Shown in pieces: positions 3,178-38,334 of a DNA stretch of 64,000 nt. Made by a program: the position numbers and the translations under genes. The stretch is from an uncultured bacterium (GTDB lineage Bacteria > Patescibacteriota > Minisyncoccia > Phycocordibacterales > PALSA-1337). The stretch spans positions 506,042 to 570,041 of the forward strand of contig OY969557.1 of assembly GCA_963701025.1 (NCBI GenBank). Direction: 5' to 3'. Each line of letters opens with the position of its first letter. Position 1 is the stretch's first letter. The notes beneath the pieces were generated by a model, which saw only the letters and a list, made by a program, of their open reading frames with translations, ran no database searches and was not told the DNA's origin.

Positions 3178-3258
3178 GCGGAAAGTATATCAGTTTGACA
3201 AAATCTTTATACGCGCTAGCTTGTAGGCAAACAACGAACCATTGACAAAGGGGTTACC

Positions 3259-3741: not shown

Positions 3742-4881
3742 TCCTTGCCGGCTTCGCGCGTCATTATGGCCCGTATCGTTTGTATTGCCGTCGTTGCGTC
3801 CGTGGTCGTTGCGCGCCGAAACGTCTTCGCCGCTTGCCCGGGCGGATGCCGCCAAATTGAGGATCGGGGCCGCTTCCTGGTCGAATAATCCGCTATCATG
3901 GGAATGCGTGCTTCTATCCGTTTCGCCGGACGTGCTGGAAGCAACCGTCGTATGAGCCTCGACTATCGTATTTTCAGTGCTCGTTGAGATTGTCTCATCG
4001 GCGCTTGTCGTGCCGGCGAATAACGCCGGATGAGCGATGGTGGTAGTGGAAGCATATCTCCCTAGAGACACAGATAATGTCGTACTTCCCTCCATGGTAT
4101 CTTTTCTCCGGTTATTATTCGAAGCCATTTCAGGCCTTCTATTAGATCTATCGCCGTATGAATGCGTAGCGACAGTAGCCGTCGAGCTCGCATGCGCCAC
4201 AGTCGTGGAGGATAATTCAGCGAGAGCCTCTTCAGTCGTCGTCCCGATGAGTGCGTCCAAATGCCGCGCGCGCTCGTTCATCCGTGCTTGGAAATCGATA
4301 CTGATCTTTTGGGCTGTCTGCGGATCAGACGACGCCACGGCGGCAAGAGCGATATTCAGTACCTGCGTATGAGCTACTATCAGATCCGAGAGTTCGGTCT
4401 GTTTCGCATGGTCGAGCTTGTTTTCCGCGGCAAGCGTCTCGCCCTCCTGCACGCGTCTATCGGTGAAATCAGCGGCAAGTTGCGCCTTGGACTCGGCTGA
4501 CGGTGCAATGGCGATGCGCAACGGCTCCGTCACGTCGACTTTAACAGGGTACAGAAGGTCACCCGGCAAGCTACTCTCCGCGGCGAGGGCGACGCCGCTT
4601 CCCGCGAGACTCATGATGAGAACTGCTATGACGGCATATGACCAGCGGTTGCGATCGATCCACGCGCTGAAAGAATACATAGTCCACGGGCTTTTGACTG
4701 GGGCCGCGGGCAATGGCCTGCGAGGCGCCGATGCGGGAGAATCGGACATGATCCTCGATAGCATGGCTTTCTTTTCTTCAGCAGTCATACTAACGCTCCT
4801 GATGATCCCCAGGGCTTTATCGAAATATGTATTGAAATCTCTGTCGGATTGTGGGTGGTTGTTATTCATGGCGGTTTTCAT
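3736..4881 (-). CDS. Membrane-anchored anti-sigma factor (DUF5667-like, PGDLLYPVK motif), Ser/Thr-rich C-terminal region
   Basis: The start overlaps the sigma factor stop (ATGA). There is one TM helix (AVIAVLIMSLAGSGVALAA) followed by a PGDLLYPVKV DUF5667-type motif. Confidence 0.55.
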   Translation of the reverse strand: MKTAMNNNHPQSDRDFNTYFDKALGIIRSVSMTAEEKKAMLSRIMSDSPASAPRRPLPAAPVKSPWTMYSFSAWIDRNRWSYAVIAVLIMSLAGSGVALAAESSLPGDLLYPVKVDVTEPLRIAIAPSAESKAQLAADFTDRRVQEGETLAAENKLDHAKQTELSDLIVAHTQVLNIALAAVASSDPQTAQKISIDFQARMNERARHLDALIGTTTEEALAELSSTTVAHASSTATVATHSYGDRSNRRPEMASNNNRRKDTMEGSTTLSVSLGRYASTTTIAHPALFAGTTSADETISTSTENTIVEAHTTVASSTSGETDRSTHSHDSGLFDQEAAPILNLAASARASGEDVSARNDHGRNDGNTNDTGHNDARSRQGK

Positions 4882-5450
4882 TCGTGTCTCTCGCGTTTGT
4901 CTCTCTGATCTTTTCCGGAAGGACTGTCATACCCGGCAAGACGCCGAAGTTCCTGTAATCCCCTGTTGATTCGAACTGACGCCGCGTTGGCCGTTATCCC
5001 GAGGATCTCGCCGATATCCGGCGGTGCGAGCCCTTCGACGAAACGCAAGTAAACGGCTTGCCTGTTCCCCGGACTCATTTCCCTTAGCTTTACCAGGAGG
5101 TATCGTCCTTCGGCGTCCATTTCCAAGTCGGCATAGTCTTTGCCGTCAGCCGGCTCGAAGTTTCCGTCGTTGTCAGGATTGAGCGCGTCTTCGACGGAGC
5201 TGAACGAGACGGCTTTTTTCTTACGATACCAGTCGATGATAAGACGGTGAGCGACCGTGAAGAGAAAAGCCTTCTCATTGTCTATACGCGTGCCGCGTGA
5301 CACGGTCTGCCACATGCGGCTGAAGGTCTCTTGGACGATGTCCAATGCCTGCTCACGGTCGGAGACTCGTACCAGGCAGAATCGGAATATGGAGTCGGCT
5401 TCAGCCTCATAGCAAGCGGTGAAGCGGCGTTGTAAGGATTCTTGATTCAT
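4878..5450 (-). CDS. ECF-family RNA polymerase sigma-70 factor
   Basis: Region 2 (DIVQETFSRMWQ) and region 4 (PGNRQAVYLRFVEGLAPPDIGEILGITANAASVRINRGLQELRR) are recognisable. The probable start is the Met at 5450; the ORF extends to 5504. Confidence 0.8.
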   Translation of the reverse strand: MNQESLQRRFTACYEAEADSIFRFCLVRVSDREQALDIVQETFSRMWQTVSRGTRIDNEKAFLFTVAHRLIIDWYRKKKAVSFSSVEDALNPDNDGNFEPADGKDYADLEMDAEGRYLLVKLREMSPGNRQAVYLRFVEGLAPPDIGEILGITANAASVRINRGLQELRRLAGYDSPSGKDQRDKRERHE

Positions 5451-6832: not shown

Positions 6833-7090
6833 TTAGGCAATCACTTTGAAGGCTTTGTTCTTCGACATCGGCCTGCAGGACTCGATAGTCGCCGTGTCAC
6901 CGATCTTCTTGGTATTGCCGGGATCATGCGCCATGAGCTTGGTCCTCTTGGTCTGGAACTTGTGATACTTTGCATGCTTGACGTAGCGCTCGATGACTAC
7001 TACCGTCGTGTCTTTCATTTTGTCCGACGAAACGACGCCGGTGAATGTCTGGCGTATCGTCTTTTGTTCGGCTGTTTTGGCGGTTGGCAT
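6833..7090 (-). CDS. rpsQ: 30S ribosomal protein S17
   Basis: Conserved uS17 sequence and operon position. Confidence 0.95.
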   Translation of the reverse strand: MPTAKTAEQKTIRQTFTGVVSSDKMKDTTVVVIERYVKHAKYHKFQTKRTKLMAHDPGNTKKIGDTATIESCRPMSKNKAFKVIA

Positions 7091-7151
7091 GTGAGCGCTG
7101 ATACTACTTGAAGTTTGTTGAAATGTCTAGCTAAAGGGAAACGGAAAATTT

Positions 7152-7358
7152 TTATTTTTGATTTTCTATCTTTACATTCATCGCCGTCAATATCCTGGCG
7201 ATGTCTTTCCGTATGGCCCTGCCCTCTTTTACATTCTTGGTCTTGGATCCCGTGGCGCCGAAACGGAATATGCGCAAAGACTCGCGCTTGTCGGCCGCGA
7301 GCTTAGCCAGGTCGGCTGGAGTCTTGCTGGTTATGTCCTTCATCTGTATAGCTTTCGT
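7152..7358 (-). CDS. rpmC: 50S ribosomal protein L29
   Basis: uL29-like 68-aa product starting at the internal Met (MTKAIQMKDITSKTPADL...). The ORF is open to 7400. Confidence 0.85.
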   Translation of the reverse strand, partial: TKAIQMKDITSKTPADLAKLAADKRESLRIFRFGATGSKTKNVKEGRAIRKDIARILTAMNVKIENQK

Positions 7359-10543: not shown

Positions 10544-10969
10544 CTACGCTCGGGCTACGATCTTGGTCTTCATGGGGAGCTTGGTGCCGGCCTTGCGAAG
10601 AGCTTCAGCGGCGACAACTGGTTCCACGCCATCGATCTCGAATATGATGCGACCCGGCCTGACTTCGGCGGTGAAGCCGACAGGCTCGCCTTTGCCCTTG
10701 CCCATTTTGACTTCAGCCGGCTTCTGGGTGAAGGGATGATCGGGGAAGACGCGGATCCAGACCTTGCCGGTCTTGCCGGCATTGTGCATGGCGGCTTTGC
10801 GGGCGGATTCGATCTGGTTGGAAGTGACGCGTCCATACTTCATGGCCTTAAGCCCGTACGAACCGAAAGAGACTTCAAGTCCGCGCGTCTCGGTCTTCAC
10901 GGCCTCCTTGGCCGCGTTCTTGCGCTTGGTGAACCATTTCCTATGCTTGACTTTCTTAGGATATAGCAT
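10544..10969 (-). CDS. rplP: 50S ribosomal protein L16
   Basis: Canonical uL16 ([11 protein letters not shown]...). Confidence 0.95.
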
Positions 10970-11032
10970 GTTGGTTAATTGAGGATTGGAATTGTAGATT
11001 GATAATTAATTTTCAATTTCAATTTTCAATTT

Positions 11033-11707
11033 TTAATTCGTTTTTTGATCCTTTTTAAATATCTCCCCTTTATATATCCACACCTTGATGCCTATGTCGC
11101 CATACGTCATATGGGCTTTTTCGCGAGCGAAGTCGATGTCGGCGCGCAGGGTCTGGAGCGGAACCTGGCCTTTCTTGAGCTCTTCGGTGCGAGCGATCTC
11201 GGCCCCGCCCAAGCGGCCGCCGAGACGGACGCGGATGCCCTTGACTTCCTTGTGAGCCATGACTTTCTCTATGGTCTGTTTCAGGACGCGGCGGAACGGC
11301 AGACGCTTTTCCAGAGCTTCGGCGATCATCATGCCGGTGATGGCGGCATTGGACTCCGGGCTCCGCACTTCCTCGACGTCGAGCTTGAGCTCCTTGCCGG
11401 CCAAGTCTATCTTGGCTTTGCGGATAAGAGTGATGATCTTCTCGCGAAGCTTGACGATGCCGTCGCCGGCCTTGCCGATGAGCATGCCGGGGCGCGACGT
11501 CTTGACGATAACGCGAATGCCCTTCTGGGTGCGCTCGATGTCGATGCCGCCGACGTAGAAGGAGCGGAGCTCTTTCTCCAGGAATTCGCGGATGATGATG
11601 TCGGTCTTGAGCGCAGTGCGATAGCTCTGGTCCGTAGCGAACCAGCGGCTCTTCCAGTCGCGGATGATTCCAAGCCTATGGGAATATGGATGTACGGTGT
11701 GGGACAT
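11033..11707 (-). CDS. rpsC: 30S ribosomal protein S3
   Basis: KH and S3-C domains; canonical uS3. Confidence 0.95.
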   Translation of the reverse strand: MSHTVHPYSHRLGIIRDWKSRWFATDQSYRTALKTDIIIREFLEKELRSFYVGGIDIERTQKGIRVIVKTSRPGMLIGKAGDGIVKLREKIITLIRKAKIDLAGKELKLDVEEVRSPESNAAITGMMIAEALEKRLPFRRVLKQTIEKVMAHKEVKGIRVRLGGRLGGAEIARTEELKKGQVPLQTLRADIDFAREKAHMTYGDIGIKVWIYKGEIFKKDQKTN

Positions 11708-11716
11708 GTTAGTAAA

Positions 11717-11745
11717 TGGAAAGTGGAAAGTGGAAAGTGGAAAGT
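11717..11745. repeat. Tandem heptad repeat (GGAAAGT)x4 on the plus strand, (ACTTTCC)x4 on the coding strand, filling the rplV-rpsC spacer
   Basis: Four perfect tandem copies, read directly in the sequence. The spacer is G-free on the mRNA strand. Confidence 0.9.
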
Positions 11746-11751
11746 TTCATA

Positions 11752-12132
11752 TTATTTTCTTGCGGGTTTATTACTATTCGCCACACTCAACTTTCCACCC
11801 TCGACTTTCGTAGCAAGCGTGATTGACACATGGCTGGTGCGTTTCTTGATGGGATGGGCGGAACCGCGGGAAACCGGCATATGGCGCTTGAGGACATAAC
11901 CCTGATCGACGCGGATCTCTTTTATGAAAAGGCTGGCTTTGTCGAGCTTGTGATTGTGGGAAGCGTTGGCCACGGCCGAGTCGATGAGATCGGAGAGCGG
12001 GTGCCGGGCTTTCTTCAACCCTTGAGCCAGGATGTTCTTGGCGTCACTAATGCTCTTGCCGCGGATCATGTTGGCCACGACACGGACTTTGCGGGGGGAG
12101 ATGCGATAATTCTTGAGGGATGCGGTGACCAT
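11752..12132 (-). CDS. rplV: 50S ribosomal protein L22
   Basis: Canonical uL22. Confidence 0.95.
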   Translation of the reverse strand: MVTASLKNYRISPRKVRVVANMIRGKSISDAKNILAQGLKKARHPLSDLIDSAVANASHNHKLDKASLFIKEIRVDQGYVLKRHMPVSRGSAHPIKKRTSHVSITLATKVEGGKLSVANSNKPARK

Positions 12133-16391: not shown

Positions 16392-17063
16392 TTATGCTTC
16401 TTTGGCCATCTTGACGGTAAGGGCTTTCAACGACTCTTCCGGATTGGCCACGATGAGATACGTATGGTTCAGAACCGAAACGGGATTGATGTTGCGGAAT
16501 TCCTCCACCGAGACGTTGCCGAAATTGCGGAAGCTCTTCTCGACGGCGGATGACTTGGCGTCCATGGCTATGATGGCGGCATTGGTCGTCTTTGTGGCGA
16601 GCCTCTCATAGCCTTTTATCTTGGAAAGAGACGAGAGCATGGCCTTGGCGTCTTTGGCCTTGGGCGCGGACATATTGACCGCGTCGAGGAAAAGGATCTC
16701 GCCATCCTTCCATTTGCGGGAGAGGATGGTATAGAAAGCCTTGGTCTTGGCCTTCTTGTTGATCTTGCGCGAATAATTCTGGTCATTGCGCGGACCGTGA
16801 GCGACGCCGCCGCCGACCCAGAGTGGCGAACGGGTCGAACCGTGGCGGGCGCGGCCAGTGCCTTTTTGTTTCCACGGCTTCTTGCCGCCGCCGCGGACTT
16901 CGCCGCGGGTCTTGGTATGGGCGATGTTCATGCGCGAATTGGAATTCATCAGACGGACCACCTCGTGGACCAGGTCGGCGTTCCAGGGCAGGCCGAAGAC
17001 GCCTTCCGGGAGCTTGATTTTACCCGTCGATTTCCCTGTCTGATTATAGACTGTTGCTTCCAT
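16392..17063 (-). CDS. rplD: 50S ribosomal protein L4
   Basis: Canonical uL4. Confidence 0.95.
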   Translation of the reverse strand: MEATVYNQTGKSTGKIKLPEGVFGLPWNADLVHEVVRLMNSNSRMNIAHTKTRGEVRGGGKKPWKQKGTGRARHGSTRSPLWVGGGVAHGPRNDQNYSRKINKKAKTKAFYTILSRKWKDGEILFLDAVNMSAPKAKDAKAMLSSLSKIKGYERLATKTTNAAIIAMDAKSSAVEKSFRNFGNVSVEEFRNINPVSVLNHTYLIVANPEESLKALTVKMAKEA

Positions 17064-17153
17064 GAAAGAAAAAAGCTCTTGCGAGTCGTGCCGAGCATAG
17101 TAGCAGAGCCGTGAAGGAGAGTCAACAGCTAGGTGAAAGGCGCTGGCAGAAAT

Positions 17154-17215
17154 CTTGAGCGTTTCTTTATCAAATCTTAGGCGTTTTTTGATTACTTTTT
17201 GAGCGTTTCTTTATC
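17154..17215 (+). promoter_or_regulatory. Two direct repeats TTGAGCGTTTCTTTATC (17154-17171 and 17198-17215) upstream of the toxin gene; putative promoter/operator
   Basis: Direct repeats 44 nt apart. The second repeat lies 22 nt before the ATG. The same 17-mer recurs upstream of both comEC halves. Confidence 0.5.
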
Positions 17216-17236
17216 TCGATTTGATATGGTTAGAGG

Positions 17237-17545
17237 ATGAAAGTCATGCCGACAGAAGAAGTAGATGCCTTCATAGAGACCTGTGAGAAAAGGGTCCGTG
17301 CCAAAATCAGCAGACGTTTTCTAATGCTTGAAAAGTTTGGTCCTATGATCCGTATGCCTTATAGCAGATATATTCTCCCTGGAGTTTTTGAGCTTCGTAC
17401 AACAGGAAAAGACAACGTGCGGCTAGTTTATGCATTTATAAACGATAAGGCGGTCGTGTTCTATGCGTTTATAAAAAAGACCGAGGAGATAAGCGCCCAC
17501 GAGATAGGCTTAATAAAACAAAAGCTTAAGAACTTGCATTTATGA
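17237..17545 (+). CDS. Type II toxin, Gp49/RelE-like (HigB-like, DUF891 family)
   Basis: About 100 aa, toxin-first order, overlapping an XRE-HTH partner by ATGA. Confidence 0.6.
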   Translation: MKVMPTEEVDAFIETCEKRVRAKISRRFLMLEKFGPMIRMPYSRYILPGVFELRTTGKDNVRLVYAFINDKAVVFYAFIKKTEEISAHEIGLIKQKLKNLHL

Positions 17546-17847
17546 CTTATACGGCATATACTACCTTTATGAAAACAGTAAATTGGAGAGAGAGGCATGA
17601 GAAAGACATGGAAGACCCTGAATACAGAAGGGAGTGGGATGCTCTTGGGCTCGAATTCGATATTATCCACGCCATCATCCGCAAACGCATCAAGGACGAC
17701 ATGACCCAAGCCCAGTTGGCCAAAAAGATGCGCACCGGCCAGGCGACTATTTCGCGTTTGGAGTCTGGAACCTACAATCCTTCAGTGAAATTCCTTCGCA
17801 GACTGGCCAAGGCGTTAGACGCGGAGCTCACGATCAGGTTGGTGTGA
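17542..17847 (+). CDS. XRE-family HTH antitoxin (HigA-like)
   Basis: HTH motif (MTQAQLAKKMRTGQATISRLESG) and a 4-nt overlap with the upstream toxin. Confidence 0.7.
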   Translation: MTYTAYTTFMKTVNWRERHEKDMEDPEYRREWDALGLEFDIIHAIIRKRIKDDMTQAQLAKKMRTGQATISRLESGTYNPSVKFLRRLAKALDAELTIRLV

Positions 17848-17858
17848 TCTAAAATTAT

Positions 17859-18482
17859 TTAACCTACAATCTCCACCAGCGTTCCTCTCCTTCCCGGTAT
17901 CGCTCCGGCAACATACAGGATGTTCTCTTCCGGGTCAACGTGAGCGACCTTCAAGTTCTTGACGGTTATGCGATCAGAGCCCATGCGTCCGGCCATGCGC
18001 ATACCAGTCGGCACGCGGTTGCGCAGGCCGCCGCCGATCGAGCCCGGTTCGCGCTCGCTGTGCTTTTGGCCGTGGGAGCGCGGGCCTCCGTGGAAGCCGT
18101 GACGCTTGACCACGCCTTGGAAGCCCTTGCCTTTGGACACTGCTGAAACGACGACCACATCGCCTGCTTTGAACTGTGAAAGCTCTATCTTGTCGCCGAC
18201 CTTAAAAGAAGGAGTTGGGAGTAAGGAGGAAGGAGAAAGACGGAATTCCGACAGGGCGGCAAAGCTTCCAAGGTCTTTCCATTGGCCCTTTTGCGCCTTG
18301 TTGACGCGAACAGGATTGCGCGAACCTTCACCCACCTGGACAGCTTCATAGCCGTCGGCTTCCTTGGTCCTGACTTGGGTGACGATATTCCCGCGGGCGG
18401 CAACGAGCGTAACCGGAATAGCCGCTCCGGAGGCGTCGTAGATCTGGGTCATGTTCAATTTTCTTCCGAGGATGAATTTCAT
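17859..18482 (-). CDS. rplC: 50S ribosomal protein L3
   Basis: Canonical uL3. Confidence 0.95.
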   Translation of the reverse strand: MKFILGRKLNMTQIYDASGAAIPVTLVAARGNIVTQVRTKEADGYEAVQVGEGSRNPVRVNKAQKGQWKDLGSFAALSEFRLSPSSLLPTPSFKVGDKIELSQFKAGDVVVVSAVSKGKGFQGVVKRHGFHGGPRSHGQKHSEREPGSIGGGLRNRVPTGMRMAGRMGSDRITVKNLKVAHVDPEENILYVAGAIPGRRGTLVEIVG

Positions 18483-18568: not shown

Positions 18569-18988
18569 CTACATCATCTTGACGTCGATGTTCACTCCCG
18601 ATGGCAAGCTCAAGTTCGTGAGAGCTTCGATGACTTTCGGGTTCGGGTTGATGATATCGATGAGCCGCTTGTGTACTCGCATCTCGAACTGCTCGCGGGC
18701 GTTCTTGTCGATGAAAGACGAACGGTTGACGGTGTATTTCTTGATCTCCGTTGGCAATGGCACCGGACCGAGGATTTCGACGTCATAACGCGACGCGGTA
18801 TCCATGATCTGGCGCAGGCTGGCATCCAGGATCTTGTGCTCGTAGGCACGAACGCGGATGCGCAAGTGAGGCAGGGCGCCTTCAGGCTTGGCCTTCTTGG
18901 CCCGGGGTGCTTTCAGCGCCGAAGCCTTCGAGGCGACTGCCGGCTTTGAATGGACCTCCTTCTTGGTTGTGGTCTTGGCTGTAGGCAT
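18569..18988 (-). CDS. rpsJ: 30S ribosomal protein S10 with a roughly 40-aa Lys/Ala-rich N-terminal extension
   Basis: The uS10 core begins at LRIRVRAYEHK. It is preceded by an AK-rich tail. Confidence 0.9.
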   Translation of the reverse strand: MPTAKTTTKKEVHSKPAVASKASALKAPRAKKAKPEGALPHLRIRVRAYEHKILDASLRQIMDTASRYDVEILGPVPLPTEIKKYTVNRSSFIDKNAREQFEMRVHKRLIDIINPNPKVIEALTNLSLPSGVNIDVKMM

Positions 18989-19068
18989 GATATGTAATCC
19001 TAATCTACGAATCTCATCCGAATGCCGCGAATATTCGTTGTATTCGTGCGATTATTCGTAGATTCGCA

Positions 19069-30404: not shown

Positions 30405-30824
30405 TTACGCTTTTACTGCTTTCGGCTTCTTGTTTCCATACTGGCTGCGGCCTTTACGGCGCTTCTCCACTCCGGCGCAGTCGAGGACGCCGCGGACGAT
30501 GGAATAGCGCAGACCAACGTCTTTGACGCGGCCACCGCGCAGGAGGACCACGGCGTGCTCCTGCAGGTTGTGGCCCTCGCCCGGTACATAAGCCGTCACT
30601 TCGACGCCGTTGGAAAGGCGCACGCGGGCGATCTTGCGGATGGCGGAGTTAGGCTTTTTCGGTGTCTTGGTCGTCACTTTGACGCAAACGCCGCGCTTGA
30701 AAGGCGCGGGAATATAGCTCGGCCGATTCTCGATCGAGTTAAACGTGCGGGTGAGAGCGATCGACTTCGACTTCCTCTGGAAGCGTACGCGATTTCTTTT
30801 TGTAAGCTGATTGATTGTGGGCAT
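30405..30824 (-). CDS. rpsL: 30S ribosomal protein S12
   Basis: Canonical uS12 (PTINQL...). Confidence 0.97.
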
Positions 30825-32027: not shown

Positions 32028-32267
32028 TCACCCCTCCCTATTCCATTCTCTCTTTGAAATCCCCGCCTGCCGTAAGATTTCGGCCAGTAGATACTTTGAG
32101 ATATCGCCAGTATGAGGATTTGGTATCCGGACTTTGAGCGGTCCTTTTGACATGAACAAGTGACGTCCACCGGAATATGGGCCATCGAAACCGAAAACGC
32201 GGAACCTGCGGATAAGCTCACGCGGAGAAACGCTCCTAAGCATGTCGGAATTGTTTCCGCTTATCAA
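32028..32267 (-). CDS. hicA: HicA-family mRNA interferase toxin
   Basis: 79 aa, LIRRFRVFGFDGPYSGGRHLFMSKG...HTGDISKYLLAEILRQAGI is a HicA/YcfA pattern. Confidence 0.7.
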   Translation of the reverse strand: MISGNNSDMLRSVSPRELIRRFRVFGFDGPYSGGRHLFMSKGPLKVRIPNPHTGDISKYLLAEILRQAGISKREWNREG

Positions 32268-32481
32268 AAGAGAATGACAAACCGGTCACGCGTTCGCCGG
32301 AACGGACTTTGACCATGAGCCAATCCTCCAAAACTTCTTGCAATTCGCGACGGCATGCTTCGAGGCTTCGGGCGCTAGCCCAGACGCCGCGTAAGGCTTT
32401 GATCTCGCCAAAATAGCTCCTGTTAGGAAGGATCTTATATGAAGCCGTATCGAGTTTTGAGCTTATAAATGAAGAAAGCAT
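32236..32481 (-). CDS. hicB: HicB-family antitoxin (UPF0150-like)
   Basis: YFGEIKALRGVWASARSLEACRRELQEVLEDWL matches the HicB core. It overlaps hicA by 32 nt. Confidence 0.6.
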   Translation of the reverse strand: MLSSFISSKLDTASYKILPNRSYFGEIKALRGVWASARSLEACRRELQEVLEDWLMVKVRSGERVTGLSFSFDKRKQFRHA

Positions 32482-33780: not shown

Positions 33781-34743
33781 TCAAATACGATGGGGGATAC
33801 GGATATCTACCCCATCCGAAACTATCTTGACTGTTCCCTTCTCCTTTATATTGAATCTCTTGTCGTCAAGGATGGAGTAGAGCGGATCCACTTTTTTATT
33901 CTTTGATGAAGAATCTTTTGAAGTTGCGGATTTTTTCGGCGAAGCGTTCATAGTCTGCGAATAGAGGAGATACTCCGGCTTCATCTTATTTATAAGCTCG
34001 GCCGACAATGATCCGGCCAAAGCGCTGTGCGTCACGACCAGAACATTCGCACCCAGCGTATTATCAGAAATCGAATCAGACGAAGATGCGGCTGAAGATA
34101 CTAAAAATTTCTGCACTTTCGTCGTGGCATTGCCGAGCAACATGACCGAGGTCCCGCCATACGATATTTTCATGATGATCTCCGGCGCGCTGGCTTTCGA
34201 ATAGGCGAAAGCGTTGATGGCTGGAAAAAGTATATCCGCTTTCACTCTCTGCCCGCCTATTTTTTGGCCGAAATCGAGCGTGCCTCCGGCCGAAACTTCT
34301 TCCAAAGGGATTTTGAGGCGTTTGGCCGTATCGAGAAATACTCCATATATCTGGTCCGTCGAGCTTGCCAAACCCAATGATTGTAATGAAACCGCTGGCA
34401 CAACGACTCTATCGACGGAATATCGTTCAAGGATATCGATGAGCCCGGAGACGTCTTTACCATTTGCATCAGTAGCTATGACAGTGTCGATCCGACGCGA
34501 ATAAAATGGCAAGATGCCGGTCAATTCACGGATGACTTCGGCATTCCCTCCTCCATTTATCAAGATCCTCGCGTCATCGGGCGTGCGGATGAAGACCGAT
34601 GAACCGCTTTTCAAATCGAAAACGTATATTTCGAGCAGGGGTTGCCGGTGCTTTTCGTTCCAGACATAACCAGCCATGCCGCAGGCTAGGGCCGTGGCGG
34701 CGGCGCCGATGAGGAAAGGCTTCGAGGCGATCTTAACTGTCAT
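33781..34743 (-). CDS. ComEC C-terminal metallo-beta-lactamase domain protein, encoded separately with its own N-terminal TM helix
   Basis: LEIYVFDLKSGSSVFIRTPDDARILINGGG matches the Lactamase_B region of ComEC/Rec2. The N-terminal TM is FLIGAAATALACGMAGYVW. Confidence 0.7.
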   Translation of the reverse strand: MTVKIASKPFLIGAAATALACGMAGYVWNEKHRQPLLEIYVFDLKSGSSVFIRTPDDARILINGGGNAEVIRELTGILPFYSRRIDTVIATDANGKDVSGLIDILERYSVDRVVVPAVSLQSLGLASSTDQIYGVFLDTAKRLKIPLEEVSAGGTLDFGQKIGGQRVKADILFPAINAFAYSKASAPEIIMKISYGGTSVMLLGNATTKVQKFLVSSAASSSDSISDNTLGANVLVVTHSALAGSLSAELINKMKPEYLLYSQTMNASPKKSATSKDSSSKNKKVDPLYSILDDKRFNIKEKGTVKIVSDGVDIRIPHRI

Positions 34744-34765
34744 GCCTCAAGCTTACCGGCCGGCG

Positions 34766-34810
34766 ATAAAGAAACGCTCAAAAAAGGCTCAAGAAACGAT
34801 GAAGATCTGA
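34766..34810. promoter_or_regulatory. 45-nt element upstream of the comEC-MBL gene (contains the TTGAGCGTTTCTTTATC motif on the coding strand); near-identical copy at 36946-36990
   Basis: 40 of 45 positions are identical between the two copies. Both sit 20-25 nt upstream of a comEC-half start codon. Confidence 0.5.
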
Positions 34811-34908
34811 TAAAGAAATGCCTAAGAAAAGTGCTATAATAGCCGCGCATCAATGGGTTTATTTATTAAAATATGTTTTATAACAGATATAACTAACAAA
34901 AATAATCT

Positions 34909-35505
34909 ATGAAAACATTCGCCCCAAAAAATTTCAATATCCCGGCCCTCAAGGGCATCTCAGCCAAGACTATCGAGGAGCACTTGAAGCTCTATCAAGG
35001 CTACGTCAAGAACGCCAACGGAGTCCACGACATGCTCGTCAAATTCATGGCCGATCCTGCTGGTAACGCCTATGTCATAGGCGAGCTTCATCGGCGCTTC
35101 AGCTTTGAATACAACGGCATGAGGAATCACGAGGTCTACTTCGCCGCGCTCGAAGGCGGAGCCAAACCGTTGGCATCCGGAAGCGCGCTTAAAAAAGCCA
35201 TCGAGGCCGAAGCAGGCTCTTTCGACGGCTTCCTGGGAGCTTTCAAGGATCTGGCCCTTACTCGCGGCATCGGTTGGGCCGTACTCTGGTGGGACCGCAA
35301 AGACGAGCGTCTGCTCGCTTCATGGATAGACGAACAACATCTGGGCGAGCTCAATGATTGCGCCATGATCCTCGCCATCGACATGTGGGAGCATTCTTAT
35401 GTCGCCGACTACCAGCCGTCGGGCAAGAAGCAGTATGTCGAAGATTTTCTGGCGAACGTAAACTGGGAAGTGGTGGAGGGGAATTTTAGGGAGACGCAGG
35501 CGTAG
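34909..35505 (+). CDS. Fe/Mn-type superoxide dismutase family protein
   Basis: DMWEHSYVADY and NVNWEVV C-terminal signature plus the NH..F motif. The N-terminal His cluster is partly substituted (EEHLKLY). A TGcTATAAT extended -10 lies at about 34832. Confidence 0.75.
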   Translation: MKTFAPKNFNIPALKGISAKTIEEHLKLYQGYVKNANGVHDMLVKFMADPAGNAYVIGELHRRFSFEYNGMRNHEVYFAALEGGAKPLASGSALKKAIEAEAGSFDGFLGAFKDLALTRGIGWAVLWWDRKDERLLASWIDEQHLGELNDCAMILAIDMWEHSYVADYQPSGKKQYVEDFLANVNWEVVEGNFRETQA

Positions 35506-35506
35506 T

Positions 35507-36922
35507 TTAAATCTTGTTAGGCACCCACGTTTTTTCAACAGCTGTTCGTCTTCCCCTCCTCTTCACCAGCACAAACCCGATCAAAAACACCGCGTAAAAA
35601 CCCGCCACCCACCATCCGGAGAAAGCCGGCAGATATACCGCAGCGAACGGCAATCTGGCAAAATGTTCGACTATGAAAAGCTCGTAGGATAGAAGCAGAT
35701 GCGCGCCCCAACCCATGACTTGCGAGGCGAGCGCGGATACAAATCCCGCGGCGCCGGTCAGAAAGACGGCGAGCATCGTTATGGGGACTAGGGGCAATAC
35801 GAGCATATTTGCCGCTACTCCGATGATGGAGAGCTGACCCATAATGTAGAGAATGAAAGGCGAGACGAATATCTGGGTGGAGACCGTGGCGGCGATGATG
35901 CCGCGGACGCCGAATGCGTCAGGGATGAAAGCCAGTCGCTCTTCTATGGGTTTCGCCAATATGATGAGCCCGAAGGTGGCAAGGAACGACAATTGGAATG
36001 AGGCGTCATATAGCAATATCATCGGATTCTGGATGAGCATGACCAGTCCGGCGAAAGACAGCGACCTTATGATGCTGTAGTCTCGGCGCATGAGATCGGC
36101 AGAAAGCGCTATGCCTGACATAAAACAGGAACGCACGACCGTGGCTCCGCCGCCGACCAGGATACCGAAAAGGACTATGCCCAAAGCGCCTATGGCGATA
36201 CCCCAAACCCGTGGCAGGAATGAGAGCAGACGGCGCATAGCCACCGCCACGATGGTTATGTTAAAACCGGACAAGACGACGATGTGGATCAAGCCGACTG
36301 TGCGGAAATCATTGAGCAGGTCCGTGCCCAGAGCGGCCTTTTCGCCCACGACCAGTCCCGCCGCCAAGGCCGAGTGCGGTTCGCCGAGAGCGCCGTTCAG
36401 ATTGTCCACAAAAGCGCGCTTGATCTTGAGCAGGAAGGACGTGATAGATTGGCCCTTATCGGCTTCGGCCAAAGATACCGTTGAGCTCTTCATCTCATAG
36501 AAGATGTCGTCCTTGGCCAGATAATTCCGGTAATCGAACGGCCTGCCACTGCCGCTGGCGAAATTGACCGGCGCAAGCAATTTCCCCGAAAATGATACGG
36601 TCTCCCCGTAATGGAACCTCGGATAGAGCTTGGTCTTCATGCGTACGAGCATGCCGCTGGGACATTCAGTGGCGCTTGCCGGAGAAGTCCCTGGAGAAGT
36701 GCCGCTAGTCGAAATATTCTGCGGCGACAATTTTTCAGCCTCTACGATCAAGATCTGGCCTGTGTCGGTGAATGACGGATCTTGAGTGATCGTGCCGGTG
36801 CCGCGTATCTGTTGTTTCAGGCATGAGCCCATATCTGGCGGATGTATGCCAAACGAAAAAATCAGACGGATGAGAGCCGCTCCGCCGAAAATCGTCCAGA
36901 AGATAAAGACTCTCCGGTTCAT
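35507..36922 (-). CDS. comEC: ComEC/Rec2 DNA-uptake channel (DUF4131 + Competence domains), lacking the MBL domain
   Basis: Polytopic membrane protein with a ComEC competence-domain pattern. Its stop lies 2 nt from the sodA-like stop on the opposite strand. Confidence 0.8.
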   Translation of the reverse strand: MNRRVFIFWTIFGGAALIRLIFSFGIHPPDMGSCLKQQIRGTGTITQDPSFTDTGQILIVEAEKLSPQNISTSGTSPGTSPASATECPSGMLVRMKTKLYPRFHYGETVSFSGKLLAPVNFASGSGRPFDYRNYLAKDDIFYEMKSSTVSLAEADKGQSITSFLLKIKRAFVDNLNGALGEPHSALAAGLVVGEKAALGTDLLNDFRTVGLIHIVVLSGFNITIVAVAMRRLLSFLPRVWGIAIGALGIVLFGILVGGGATVVRSCFMSGIALSADLMRRDYSIIRSLSFAGLVMLIQNPMILLYDASFQLSFLATFGLIILAKPIEERLAFIPDAFGVRGIIAATVSTQIFVSPFILYIMGQLSIIGVAANMLVLPLVPITMLAVFLTGAAGFVSALASQVMGWGAHLLLSYELFIVEHFARLPFAAVYLPAFSGWWVAGFYAVFLIGFVLVKRRGRRTAVEKTWVPNKI

Positions 36923-36945
36923 GGAGGGCCATTGTACTCGTCCAA

Positions 36946-36990
36946 GATAAAGGAACGCTCAAGAAAGCCTCAAGAAACGATGAAGATCCG
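36946..36990. promoter_or_regulatory. Second copy of the 45-nt element, upstream of the comEC channel gene
   Basis: GATAAAGGAACGCTCAAGAAAGCCTCAAGAAACGATGAAGATCCG aligns with 34766-34810. Confidence 0.5.
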
Positions 36991-37031
36991 CTCAAATTTC
37001 ACTGAAGATCTGCTTGCTTGCCTATAATCGG

Positions 37032-37864
37032 CTAGAATGCGCCGAATTCATCGATTATTCTCTGCTCGTCTTCGAGATCGACCGACTTTTTATGCTTGGC
37101 GCCTTTAATTCCCTTGACCCGTTTCTCGCATTCCGGCCATGAATGATGGACTTCGATGACGCCACCGACCATGCTCACGTATGAATACGCTTTGGTCCGC
37201 CGGCTGGCTGACGAGCGAGAGGAAGCCGACTTCTTTTTCTCCAAGTCGGCCTCGTTGTGCGAGATGTCCAATATATCCGGCAAGTCATAGCCGCCGATAG
37301 CGTACCTTTATACAAGGCAATCTTCCTTCCGTCGGCAAAAGCCGTGGCGATGTGATCGCACCTCTCATTGCCTAGAATCCCGATGTGACCGCCGACATAT
37401 TTCCACTCGATGTTTCCGCCGGATGATTTGACGGCGCCGGCGACATCATCCAGTTTTTTCCAAAGGTCTGCGTTCAATACGCTTTTCCTCGCCTTGGTCT
37501 TCCAGCCATTCTTCTTCCAAGAGTGAATCCACCTCGTTATTCCGTTGATGACGTAAGAGGAGTCTATGTAGAGGATGATTCGTACGCCCTTTGATTCTTT
37601 GCCTTGTAACTCGCATAGCGCGTGTGTCGCCGCCATGAGCTCCATCCTATTATTCGTCGTGTCTTTTTCGCCACCGCCAAACTCTGTAACCTTCGCGGCC
37701 TTATTTGCGGCCTTGTTTTTATTTTTTCCGACGACCATTCTTCCGCTGGCTGGCGGATTTCCATTTTCAATGACGATCGCTCCCCAGCCGCCTGGACCCG
37801 GGTTTCCGCGAGATGAGCCGTCAGTGAAGATGGTGACGGGATTTTTATTATTCATAGATGTCAT
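37032..37864 (-). CDS. rnhA: RNase HI with C-terminal Cauli_VI-like hybrid-binding domain; reading frame broken by one frameshift near 37300
   Basis: RNase H fold motifs (TDGSS..., MELMAA, DSSYV, NERCDHIATAFA). After ...ALYKG the frame shifts to ...YAIGGYDLPDILDISH...YSYVSMVGGVIEVHHSWPECEKRVKGIKGAKHKK, a Cauli_VI/HBD pattern. Consistent with a 1-nt deletion in a TT run. Confidence 0.7.
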
Positions 37865-38105
37865 GGTCTCTTATTTGGTAAAATCTCGCCATGCCTTTGC
37901 CTTCAAACTTGAATATGATGCGAAACTTGAAATTAACAGAGAAAGCATACCGTCCCGCAAGCCTGCCCGACAGTTTATGAGTCTTCAATTCGACATCAAA
38001 AGGGTCCTTTTTGAAAATCGATTCCTTCTCCCCTGTCAAAATCTTTACTGCGCTCGGCAATCTCCTGAATTGCTTGACGAATTTGGAATGAAAAAAGATG
38101 TGCAC
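37848..38105 (-). CDS. RelE/ParE-family toxin
   Basis: 85 aa with KLSGRLAGRYAFSVNFKFRIIFKFE...RFYQIRDHDIY. Confidence 0.65.
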   Translation of the reverse strand: MHIFFHSKFVKQFRRLPSAVKILTGEKESIFKKDPFDVELKTHKLSGRLAGRYAFSVNFKFRIIFKFEGKGMARFYQIRDHDIYE

Positions 38106-38115
38106 GCGTGCAATT

Positions 38116-38334
38116 CTATCTTATATCGCGCACTGAATCAAAATGCTTCCAATTCTTTCCTTGCTTGAAATCTTTGTCCGCCCTATCTAACTCCATCGCC
38201 AACCTCTCGGTATTCCACATCCTCAAAATATGCCGGAAGAACTCGCTCGTTGAAGCGAAGCGGCCGGCCTTGACCTCCTTTTTGACTTCAGCGGCCAGAG
38301 AAGCGGGTAACGATATGTTGATGACGGAGCGCAT
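38116..38334 (-). CDS. ParD/RHH-type antitoxin
   Basis: 72 aa with ISLPASLAAEVKKEVKAGRFASTSEFFRHILRMW, a ribbon-helix-helix pattern. It lies 10 nt upstream of the toxin. Confidence 0.6.
   Translation of the reverse strand: MRSVINISLPASLAAEVKKEVKAGRFASTSEFFRHILRMWNTERLAMELDRADKDFKQGKNWKHFDSVRDIR

Follow-up and report, generated by a model that had tools for sequence, protein, structure and literature searches.

ComEC is the universal channel for DNA import, and what its metallo-β-lactamase (MBL) domain does besides catalysis is an open question. In the COG system, the two parts of the protein have long had separate entries. Competence genes are linked by cis elements such as the streptococcal cin-box (sigma-X), the ComK K-boxes of B. 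subtilis and CRP-S sites, and 11-bp direct repeats form Pho-box-type operators, the repeats of PhoB/OmpR-type promoters (two to four units) replacing the -35 element. Here, we studied ComEC in a 64,000-nt stretch of DNA (the window) from an uncultured, ultra-small bacterium of the Patescibacteriota, class Minisyncoccia, and of the Paceibacteria type (assembly GCA_963701025.1, contig OY969557.1, positions 506,042 to 570,041 of the forward strand). In this window ComEC is encoded by two genes, one for the channel and one for an MBL-fold protein, which lie on either side of a superoxide dismutase (SOD) gene and are each preceded by a copy of the same repeat element.

In fused ComEC proteins, a flexible linker carries the MBL domain, which takes up its position through a small OB-fold interface (PMC13539106). 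Residues H598, D602, H603, and D700 of the characterised enzyme are each essential for nuclease activity and transformation, a single Ala substitution at any of them abolishing activity; D600 contributes to activity, H725 and S728 contact DNA, and the domain bears an aromatic “pin loop” of the form N-K/R-Y/F-G-H/F-P (PMC12455585). The ComEC of S. pneumoniae keeps an MBL domain that is deficient in metal ligands, and EndA cuts the second strand (PMC12455585). Domain surveys have recorded variants that lack the OB or the MBL domain (PMC6299819). ComEC and other competence genes have been widely noted in Patescibacteria; ComEC mediates transformation in Saccharibacteria (PMC10633639), and high expression of ComEC and pilus genes has been reported from a metatranscriptome of Paceibacterales (PMC10936435). 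Our searches of the open-access literature gave no account of a split ComEC, of a ComEC-derived MBL gene that stands alone, or of the inactivation of such a gene, and for Patescibacteria no promoter motifs, leaderless promoters, or regulon information.

A ComEC encoded by two genes

The channel half (35507-36922, reverse strand) encodes 471 aa comprising a probable OB fold (DUF4131), the Competence transmembrane domain, and a basic C-terminus, KRRGRR, that is probably cytoplasmic. The other half (33781-34743, reverse strand) encodes a stand-alone ComEC-derived MBL-fold protein of 320 aa, in which an N-terminal anchor is followed by a degenerate nuclease domain. Between them lies a gene for an Fe/Mn SOD (34909-35505, forward strand; 198 aa), which diverges from the MBL gene and converges on the channel gene. 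An initial annotation of this DNA had described ComEC as split into two genes, and we find it to be so: all three open reading frames are present, and the two proteins cover the ComEC/Rec2 model TIGR00361 (663 positions) in complementary fashion, the channel protein at positions 82-411 (88.4 bits) and the 320-aa protein at 437-633 (27.5 bits), with neither reaching the equivalog cut-off of 190.

Pfam recognises the Competence domain (PF03772) of the channel protein at 1.4e-48 and 166 bits, far above the cut-off of 23, and places DUF4131 (PF13567; 2e-7) at 31.1 bits against a cut-off of 31.6; PF13567 is listed in the precomputed annotation for P0121, which is identical to the channel protein, and for all close homologs. 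The 320-aa protein matches no Pfam family at E<=0.1, and no MBL model (PF00753 and relatives) in particular, whereas PF00753 (Lactamase_B) does match its catalytic stand-alone relatives. Its family profile nevertheless finds the MBL domain of a solved ComEC (30bt_A) with E=1e-14. An AlphaFold2 (AF2) model of the protein (pLDDT 83, pTM 0.81) begins with a helix at residues 7-31, in keeping with the separate N-terminal transmembrane helix proposed by the initial annotation, and continues as an alpha-beta/beta-alpha sandwich for which the best PDB match in Foldseek is the ComEC beta-lactamase-like domain 9ic4 (E=2.7e-18, TM 0.76). Judged by profile and predicted structure, then, the protein is a ComEC-type MBL fold despite the silence of Pfam.

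The position of the cut can be read from the solved 801-residue ComEC (30bt_A). Because the channel protein aligns to its residues 143-488 and the MBL half from residue 530, the break must lie immediately ahead of the membrane-spanning segment through which the chain passes out to the MBL domain. The cut is in a cytoplasmic stretch, the MBL half has an N-in/C-out anchor of its own, and the predicted topology of the original ComEC is preserved.

The division is common to a large family. Homologs of the 320-aa protein number in the hundreds (>240), all of them stand-alone, ~280-360 aa in length, and from Patescibacteria of the Paceibacteria/Minisyncoccia type. An exhaustive profile search returned ~178 clusters (50% identity) of stand-alone homologs at E<=1e-30; in the best 150 of these every protein was stand-alone and aligned from its N-terminus, and none was fused. 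Channel homologs, among the 120 listed, are mostly 440-490 aa with DUF4131 and Competence, and none has an MBL domain. The gene order recJ - rnhA - channel - SOD (opposite strand) - MBL-like - rpmB - M50 peptidase - rpsL - rpsG - fusA is repeated in relatives with MBL-like proteins 75%, 53%, and 49% identical to that of the window, and also in some at 25-29% (the loci with conserved order being L001, from the 75% relative; the P0018 locus; L002, at 49%, with L003; L122; and L124). A comparison of comEC architecture in related genomes, as suggested in the initial annotation, thus finds the split throughout this range, and the MBL-like gene co-occurs with a channel protein on every long contig examined. 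For 22 pairs of channel and MBL-like proteins, both members are encoded on one contig. Automated annotations already call some of the MBL-like homologs “competence protein ComEC” or “beta-lactamase superfamily II hydrolase”. Ratios of dN/dS are 0.07 and 0.15 for the MBL half and 0.08 and 0.16 for the channel (Nei-Gojobori estimates, which are rough, with dS saturated), and by this measure purifying selection on the MBL half is as strong as on the channel.

Gene fission could in principle be mimicked by an error of assembly or sequencing, or by a pseudogene of recent origin. The adjoining rnhA is frameshifted in the same assembly, so indel errors or decay do happen here, but the comEC halves are separated by a SOD gene that is complete and undamaged and runs on the other strand, each half has its own start and predicted promoter, the arrangement is seen in many independent assemblies, and pN is far lower than pS. 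An entire gene stands between the halves, and the ComEC split cannot therefore be an error of the rnhA type. With the conserved gene order, the size of the family, and the dN/dS values added, this explanation was discarded and we give it practically no probability. The initial annotation's preference for a true fission over a pseudogene or assembly error is upheld by the intervening SOD gene, the gene order in relatives, and the strong purifying selection; on comparative sequence grounds, the fission is true, old, and conserved.

Several features of the locus are recorded here in their own right. The frameshifted rnhA (37032-37864, reverse strand) comprises an RNase_H reading frame (37175-37864) and one for a C-terminal Cauli_VI-type hybrid-binding domain (37032-37283), and in relatives, single proteins of 239-251 aa align first to frame 1 and further on to frame 3; this may reflect a sequencing indel, a real pseudogene, or programmed frameshifting. 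Some homologs of the channel half (P0176, P0179, P0193, P0196, P0220, and P0236) reach 600-640 aa through an extension that Pfam does not recognise. At least P0193 is on a contig of equal length to that of a stand-alone MBL-like protein, P0024, so the extension is probably not an MBL domain. In the 75% relative (L001), genes for a PBECR2-like (weak) and a PBECR3 nuclease toxin (4648-5091 and 6890-7357) sit directly behind each ComEC half and overlap it, and a protein of 633 aa, P0227, is annotated as a PBECR3-ComEC fusion.

The SOD protein matches Sod_Fe_C at 5e-21 (75 bits, cut-off 20.9) and Sod_Fe_N at 23.7 bits, under the cut-off of 27. It aligns in full length to solved SODs, best to 1coj (2.5e-23, residues 6-195), and keeps the four metal ligands of 1coj and 1p7g: the H in EEHLKL, the H in RNHEVYF, and the D and H in DMWEHSY. 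The initial annotation had considered such a gene notable in a presumably fermentative organism with a small genome, a point we dropped: a SOD gene is present in 65-83% of groundwater Patescibacteria metagenome-assembled genomes (MAGs) (PMC8672522), and because it is so common in the phylum, its presence here is ordinary. Its position between the halves is conserved across the compared loci, and we note this without proposing a functional link. The stop codons of the SOD and channel genes are 1 nt apart (35503-35509) with no terminator-like site in between, and in the distant relative L124 the two genes overlap by 53 nt (3202-3254); convergent transcription or antisense interference at these gene ends is possible.

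Loss of the catalytic residues in the MBL half

The initial annotation had raised the question whether the MBL protein keeps its metal-binding His and Asp residues, and the alignment answers in the negative. In the numbering of the M. glycerini enzyme, with equivalents in the window protein taken from the profile alignment, H598 corresponds to D92, D600 to N94, D602 to K96, H603 to D97, and D700 to N205; of the residues that contact DNA, H725 is retained as H239 and S728 is replaced by L242. The motifs DVGQGD, H.(H/D).DH, GD, and HHGS, which canonical stand-alone members of the family keep, are all missing from the window protein, while the non-catalytic motifs typical of ComEC, RTP and LPFY..RRID, are kept. 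An MBL half without catalytic residues and without expression had been named in the initial annotation as what would speak against a functional split; the residues are indeed missing, but the gene is still clearly maintained by selection. From its sequence, the MBL half is almost certainly not a canonical nuclease, and we read it as a pseudo-nuclease.

The loss extends over most of the family. Among 243 stand-alone sequences, the ligands are fully canonical in 14, intermediate in 34, and degenerate (<=2 of seven canonical residues kept) in 195. Lys occupies the position of the general base (D602) in 148/243, a His equivalent to H725 is kept in 127/243, and the former ligand positions vary (N/D/S/K/H). 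At the place of the pin loop, the alignment of the window's clade has a Lys-rich basic loop, ‘KKK..DPL’, which is modelled with low confidence and has a conserved DPL end.

Catalytic stand-alone forms, judged by their motifs, include P0366, P0376, P0382, and others. One of them, P0382, is found in the exact gene order of the window, with a SOD gene between the halves, and another, P0366 (L120), lies directly 3' of its channel gene with an overlap of 11 nt. Because distant stand-alone relatives with the same order remain catalytic, the events can be put in order: fission came first, separation followed, and finally a sub-clade lost the ligands.

A putative phased-repeat promoter module

The initial annotation also reported a near-identical 45-nt element before both comEC genes. 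The similarity is real (41/45 and 44/50 positions identical, with an exact 20-mer common to both copies where 0.01 would be expected by chance), but the element is longer than described, ~66 nt made of six phased 11-nt units with the consensus GTTTCTTGAGC. A repeat search located one copy upstream of the channel gene (36946-37011, reverse strand; nhmmer E=9e-18) and another upstream of the MBL-like gene (34765-34830, reverse strand; E=4e-16). Comparison with the rest of the DNA, likewise suggested in that annotation, was made here for the window and gave exactly one further copy (17150-17215, forward strand; E=1e-15), which is seen by Tandem Repeats Finder (TRF) as a period of 22 x 3 and lies upstream of a Gp49/XRE toxin-antitoxin (TA) pair. 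The profile search of the 64 kb thus finds exactly three copies, the next-best match having E>2, and the element is absent from the ~45 other upstream regions checked in the window.

All three copies share a geometry in which the array, at about -87 to -22, is followed by a 9-nt spacer, a -10-like hexamer of the form TAnnnT, and an ATG 6-8 nt on. The channel gene (36920-36945, reverse strand) has the hexamer TACAAT (36931-36936), 8 nt, and its ATG (36920-36922); the MBL-like gene (34741-34764, reverse strand) has TAAGCT (34750-34755), 6 nt, and its ATG (34741-34743); and the third copy (forward strand) has TGATATGGT, an extended -10 with the hexamer TATGGT (17225-17230), 6 nt, and an ATG at 17237. 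With the hexamer directly before the start codon and no Shine-Dalgarno spacing, this geometry suggests a leaderless promoter, from which transcription would start on or beside the A of the ATG. The TG of an extended -10 is found in the TA copy and in most copies of relatives. The shared array and core place both comEC genes under one predicted promoter module.

Other identities for the element were considered and rejected. A promoter scan gave no canonical sigma-70 -35/-10 pair overlapping it: TTGAGC lies 20 nt from the -10 hexamer, and there is no -35 at 16-18 nt. As to a structured RNA, riboswitch, or terminator, no Rfam family, tRNA included, reaches its gathering score anywhere in the 64 kb, and in folding the element does not surpass shuffled sequence (z = +0.5 to +1.0). 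The third copy in the window and the many copies in relatives contradict a private duplication between the comEC halves, and a comEC-specific variant, GATCTTCATCGTTTCTTGAG, is contradicted by the occurrence of the same variant before unrelated genes in peat metagenome contigs. The initial annotation's tie between a duplicated element and the fission is accordingly withdrawn in favour of a multi-copy promoter module, the third copy of which precedes an unrelated gene. Its suggestion of co-regulated expression fares better: the shared upstream element is compatible with it and is conserved in relatives, but the element is not private to ComEC.

In the 75% relative (L001), both halves carry the element in copies that are 64/66 identical to each other and only 46-47/66 identical to those of the window; copies within one genome evolve in concert. 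A diverged element is recognisable before both halves in the 49% relative (L002), and the core-promoter geometry of the MBL-like gene is conserved in both of these genomes. The module of relatives has the form TGnTAnnnT with the same spacing to the ATG. Behind it we found a Gp49 and XRE pair (L009), PemK/MazF-type toxins, MuF_C-like and LPD3-like small proteins, an IS200-like transposase, a large secreted protein, small coiled-coil proteins, type IV pilin-like proteins with the N_methyl motif, and a protein of the ComM/YifB family (ChlI + Mg_chelatase + Mg_chelatase_C). Chance matches, to which roughly half of the 20-mer hits in metagenomes and most of the 17-mer hits listed from the genome collection were ascribed, were discarded. 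Because the module precedes comM, pilin, and small toxin genes in relatives, it appears to define a wider regulon that includes DNA-uptake machinery.

A probable two-chain ComEC and the alternatives

We consider it probable, at roughly 0.6, that this locus encodes a two-chain ComEC with a non-catalytic MBL-like subunit, and that the two genes share a phased-repeat promoter belonging to a wider regulon with DNA-uptake genes. An ancestral three-domain ComEC was cut into an OB-fold and channel protein and an anchored MBL-fold protein, and in the window's clade the MBL half later lost the canonical metal ligands. The MBL-like protein may still dock on the outer face of the channel and OB fold and serve there in a non-catalytic capacity, handling or guiding DNA at the channel entrance, and in this it would resemble the ligand-deficient MBL domain of S. 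pneumoniae ComEC. Transcripts from the module would be leaderless, and either a DNA-binding factor or intrinsic DNA curvature would act on the phased repeats, which may in this way co-ordinate expression of the two halves. The XRE antitoxin of the Gp49 pair was entertained as the common regulator and set aside, the repeats being direct and not palindromic; it remains an idea only, and by eye the XRE antitoxins of two genomes are only moderately similar. A more far-reaching form, in which a two-subunit ComEC with a pseudo-nuclease outer subunit guides DNA across a major class of the candidate phyla radiation (CPR) and is served by a new phased-repeat DNA-uptake regulon, is tentative and more doubtful than not. 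If it were true, the outer subunit, in which a Lys occupies what was once the metal site and a basic loop substitutes for the pin loop, would bind DNA or guide it and leave it uncut. The module would extend its control to comM, the type IV pilin genes, and a group of toxin genes, and uncultivated Patescibacteria would have a first candidate ‘competence box’.

A number of observations weigh against the two-chain reading. The whole recJ...fusA block is syntenic in these small genomes, so gene order alone is no proof of a functional link. Pin-loop aromatics that are essential in L. pneumophila are not conserved in the alignment, and the canonical role in strand separation may therefore also be lost. 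Residues D92, N94, D97, N205, and H239 could in principle bind metal. Both comEC copies of the module are without the extended -10 TG, and the shared element is not evident in the distant genomes L122, L124 (channel gene), L125, and L120. Finally, the genes behind the element are heterogeneous, ranging from toxins to an IS200-like transposase and a large secreted protein, so it may have no specific tie to competence and be instead a promoter cassette of a generic or mobile kind.

Some of these observations can be carried further into an alternative. With catalytic ligands and pin-loop aromatics both gone, with an MBL domain that Pfam no longer recognises, and with a linkage that may be mere inertia in a block syntenic throughout, the MBL-like protein might have ceased to work with ComEC after fission and catalytic loss and been recruited to an unrelated envelope function, its proximity to comEC being inherited gene order. 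What makes this unlikely in our view is how much of ComEC persists: the RTP and LPFY..RRID motifs, the membrane anchor and its topology, the constant company of the channel protein on long contigs, the promoter module common to both halves (64/66 identical in L001), and an evolutionary rate equal to that of the channel. It is less probable still, and by a clear step, that the MBL-like half is a nuclease or hydrolase with a non-canonical active site (for example, Asp, Asn, and His binding Mg2+ or Mn2+), with ComEC function unchanged except for being split. The window protein does offer the five potential ligands named above, and the His equivalent to H725 persists in about half of the family, but the candidate positions vary across the family, Lys replaces the general base or bridging Asp in 148 sequences, single Ala substitutions at H598, D602, H603, or D700 are enough to kill the characterised enzyme, and the Pfam MBL match that catalytic stand-alone relatives retain is missing.

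The promoter module invites a different kind of doubt, namely that the array is not a regulator site at all. It could be intrinsically curved T-tract DNA with the general effect of a UP-like enhancer, or what is left of a mobile promoter cassette which spreads along with small toxin genes and which the comEC genes acquired; sharing it would then imply no specific co-regulation. T-rich tracts are indeed phased at 11 bp, the element is associated with toxin-antitoxin, MuF/LPD3/PBECR-type, and IS200-like genes, and the TA cassette lies at different genomic places in the window and in a relative. Against this stand the promoter-proximal 22-33 nt, which are nearly invariant across copies and genomes and include G/C positions that would be dispensable for curvature, the concerted evolution of copies within a genome, and the four DNA-uptake functions found downstream (comEC twice, comM, and pilins). 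We regard enhancer or cassette as somewhat improbable, though less so than an unrelated envelope function, and retain the two-chain ComEC with a shared regulatory module as our preferred reading.

Other features of the window

The TA pair behind the third copy of the element consists of a Gp49/HigB-like toxin (17237-17545, forward strand; Pfam Gp49 1.8e-14) and an XRE-HTH antitoxin (17542-17847, forward strand; HTH_3 1.2e-13), which overlap by 4 nt (17542-17545). This cassette, with its own promoter module, is inserted in a ribosomal-protein gene cluster between rplD (16392-17063) and rplC (17859-18482), both on the reverse strand and thus opposite to it, and is found elsewhere in a relative MAG (L009). 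A second small TA-like pair (37848-38334, reverse strand) lies between rnhA and recJ and comprises a ribbon-helix-helix protein (38116-38334; RHH_1 7e-6) and a HigB/RelE-like toxin (37848-38105) with a weak match of 1e-3, below cut-off. Two overlapping small open reading frames (32028-32481, reverse strand) resemble, by eye only, a HicB-type antitoxin (32236-32481), which has TATAAT 9 nt before its ATG, and a HicA-type toxin (32028-32267).

Another upstream motif, approximately GCATTCGGATACTATTTGTAGATTCG.ATTA.AT, ends a few nt before the ATG of ribosomal-protein-type genes on the reverse strand, namely rplC (17859-18482), an rpsJ-like gene (18569-18988), and the gene at 30405-30824, and also appears as a TRF row (19027-19066); its recurrence suggests a second promoter or leader family in this genome. 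The divergent intergenic region 10970-11044, between genes at 10544-10969 (reverse) and 11045-11899 (forward), is filled with AATTTTC/TTGAAAA heptamers (TRF rows 11008-11060).

Implications and comparison with known systems

A conserved MBL domain that is both detached and catalytically dead implies selection for something other than DNA cutting, and the split ComEC offers a natural two-chain system in which this domain can be studied. Surveys based on Pfam domain profiles would misclassify the clade as a case of nuclease-domain loss, because the separate MBL gene is invisible to Pfam. The comparative series from adjacent catalytic, through SOD-separated catalytic and intermediate, to degenerate forms provides a dated path of fission followed by inactivation, and through the shared promoter module, gene regulation in Patescibacteria, including a possible competence regulon, becomes concretely accessible to study. 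Experiments are feasible, as a cultured member of the class, Minisyncoccus, and transformable Saccharibacteria now exist.

Canonical ComEC/Rec2 proteins (Moorella/Neomoorella, B. subtilis, and L. pneumophila; 30bt, 9ic4) resemble the proteins of the window in domains, domain order, and predicted topology, and the RTP and PF..RR.D motifs of the MBL domain are common to both. They differ in being one chain, where the window has two polypeptides from separately promoted genes with a SOD gene between them, and in having H598/D600/D602/H603/D700 and the pin-loop aromatics, for which the window's MBL part has no equivalents. S. pneumoniae ComEC likewise retains an MBL domain that is predicted to be inactive, but there the dead domain is still fused to the channel, and here it is a separate anchored protein. 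An MBL-less ComEC (the ‘DC’ profile of Pimentel & Zhang 2018; H. pylori) is what the window's channel gene alone would score as; such proteins have lost Lactamase_B, whereas here the domain is encoded nearby as a gene of its own that Pfam does not see. The stand-alone catalytic ComEC-type MBL proteins of other Patescibacteria share the architecture of N-terminal anchor and MBL domain, but they keep the nuclease motifs and the Pfam Lactamase_B match, and the window protein has neither.

The promoter module has its own counterparts. As in competence regulons, an upstream motif links comEC to other DNA-uptake genes (comM and pilins), and as in PhoB/OmpR-type promoters, helically phased direct repeats of ~11 bp stand in place of a -35 element. 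The array of the window differs from the latter in its six units instead of two to four and in its leaderless geometry, and it has no sequence resemblance to the cin-box, K-box, CRP-S site, or Pho-box and also drives toxin and mobile-element genes.

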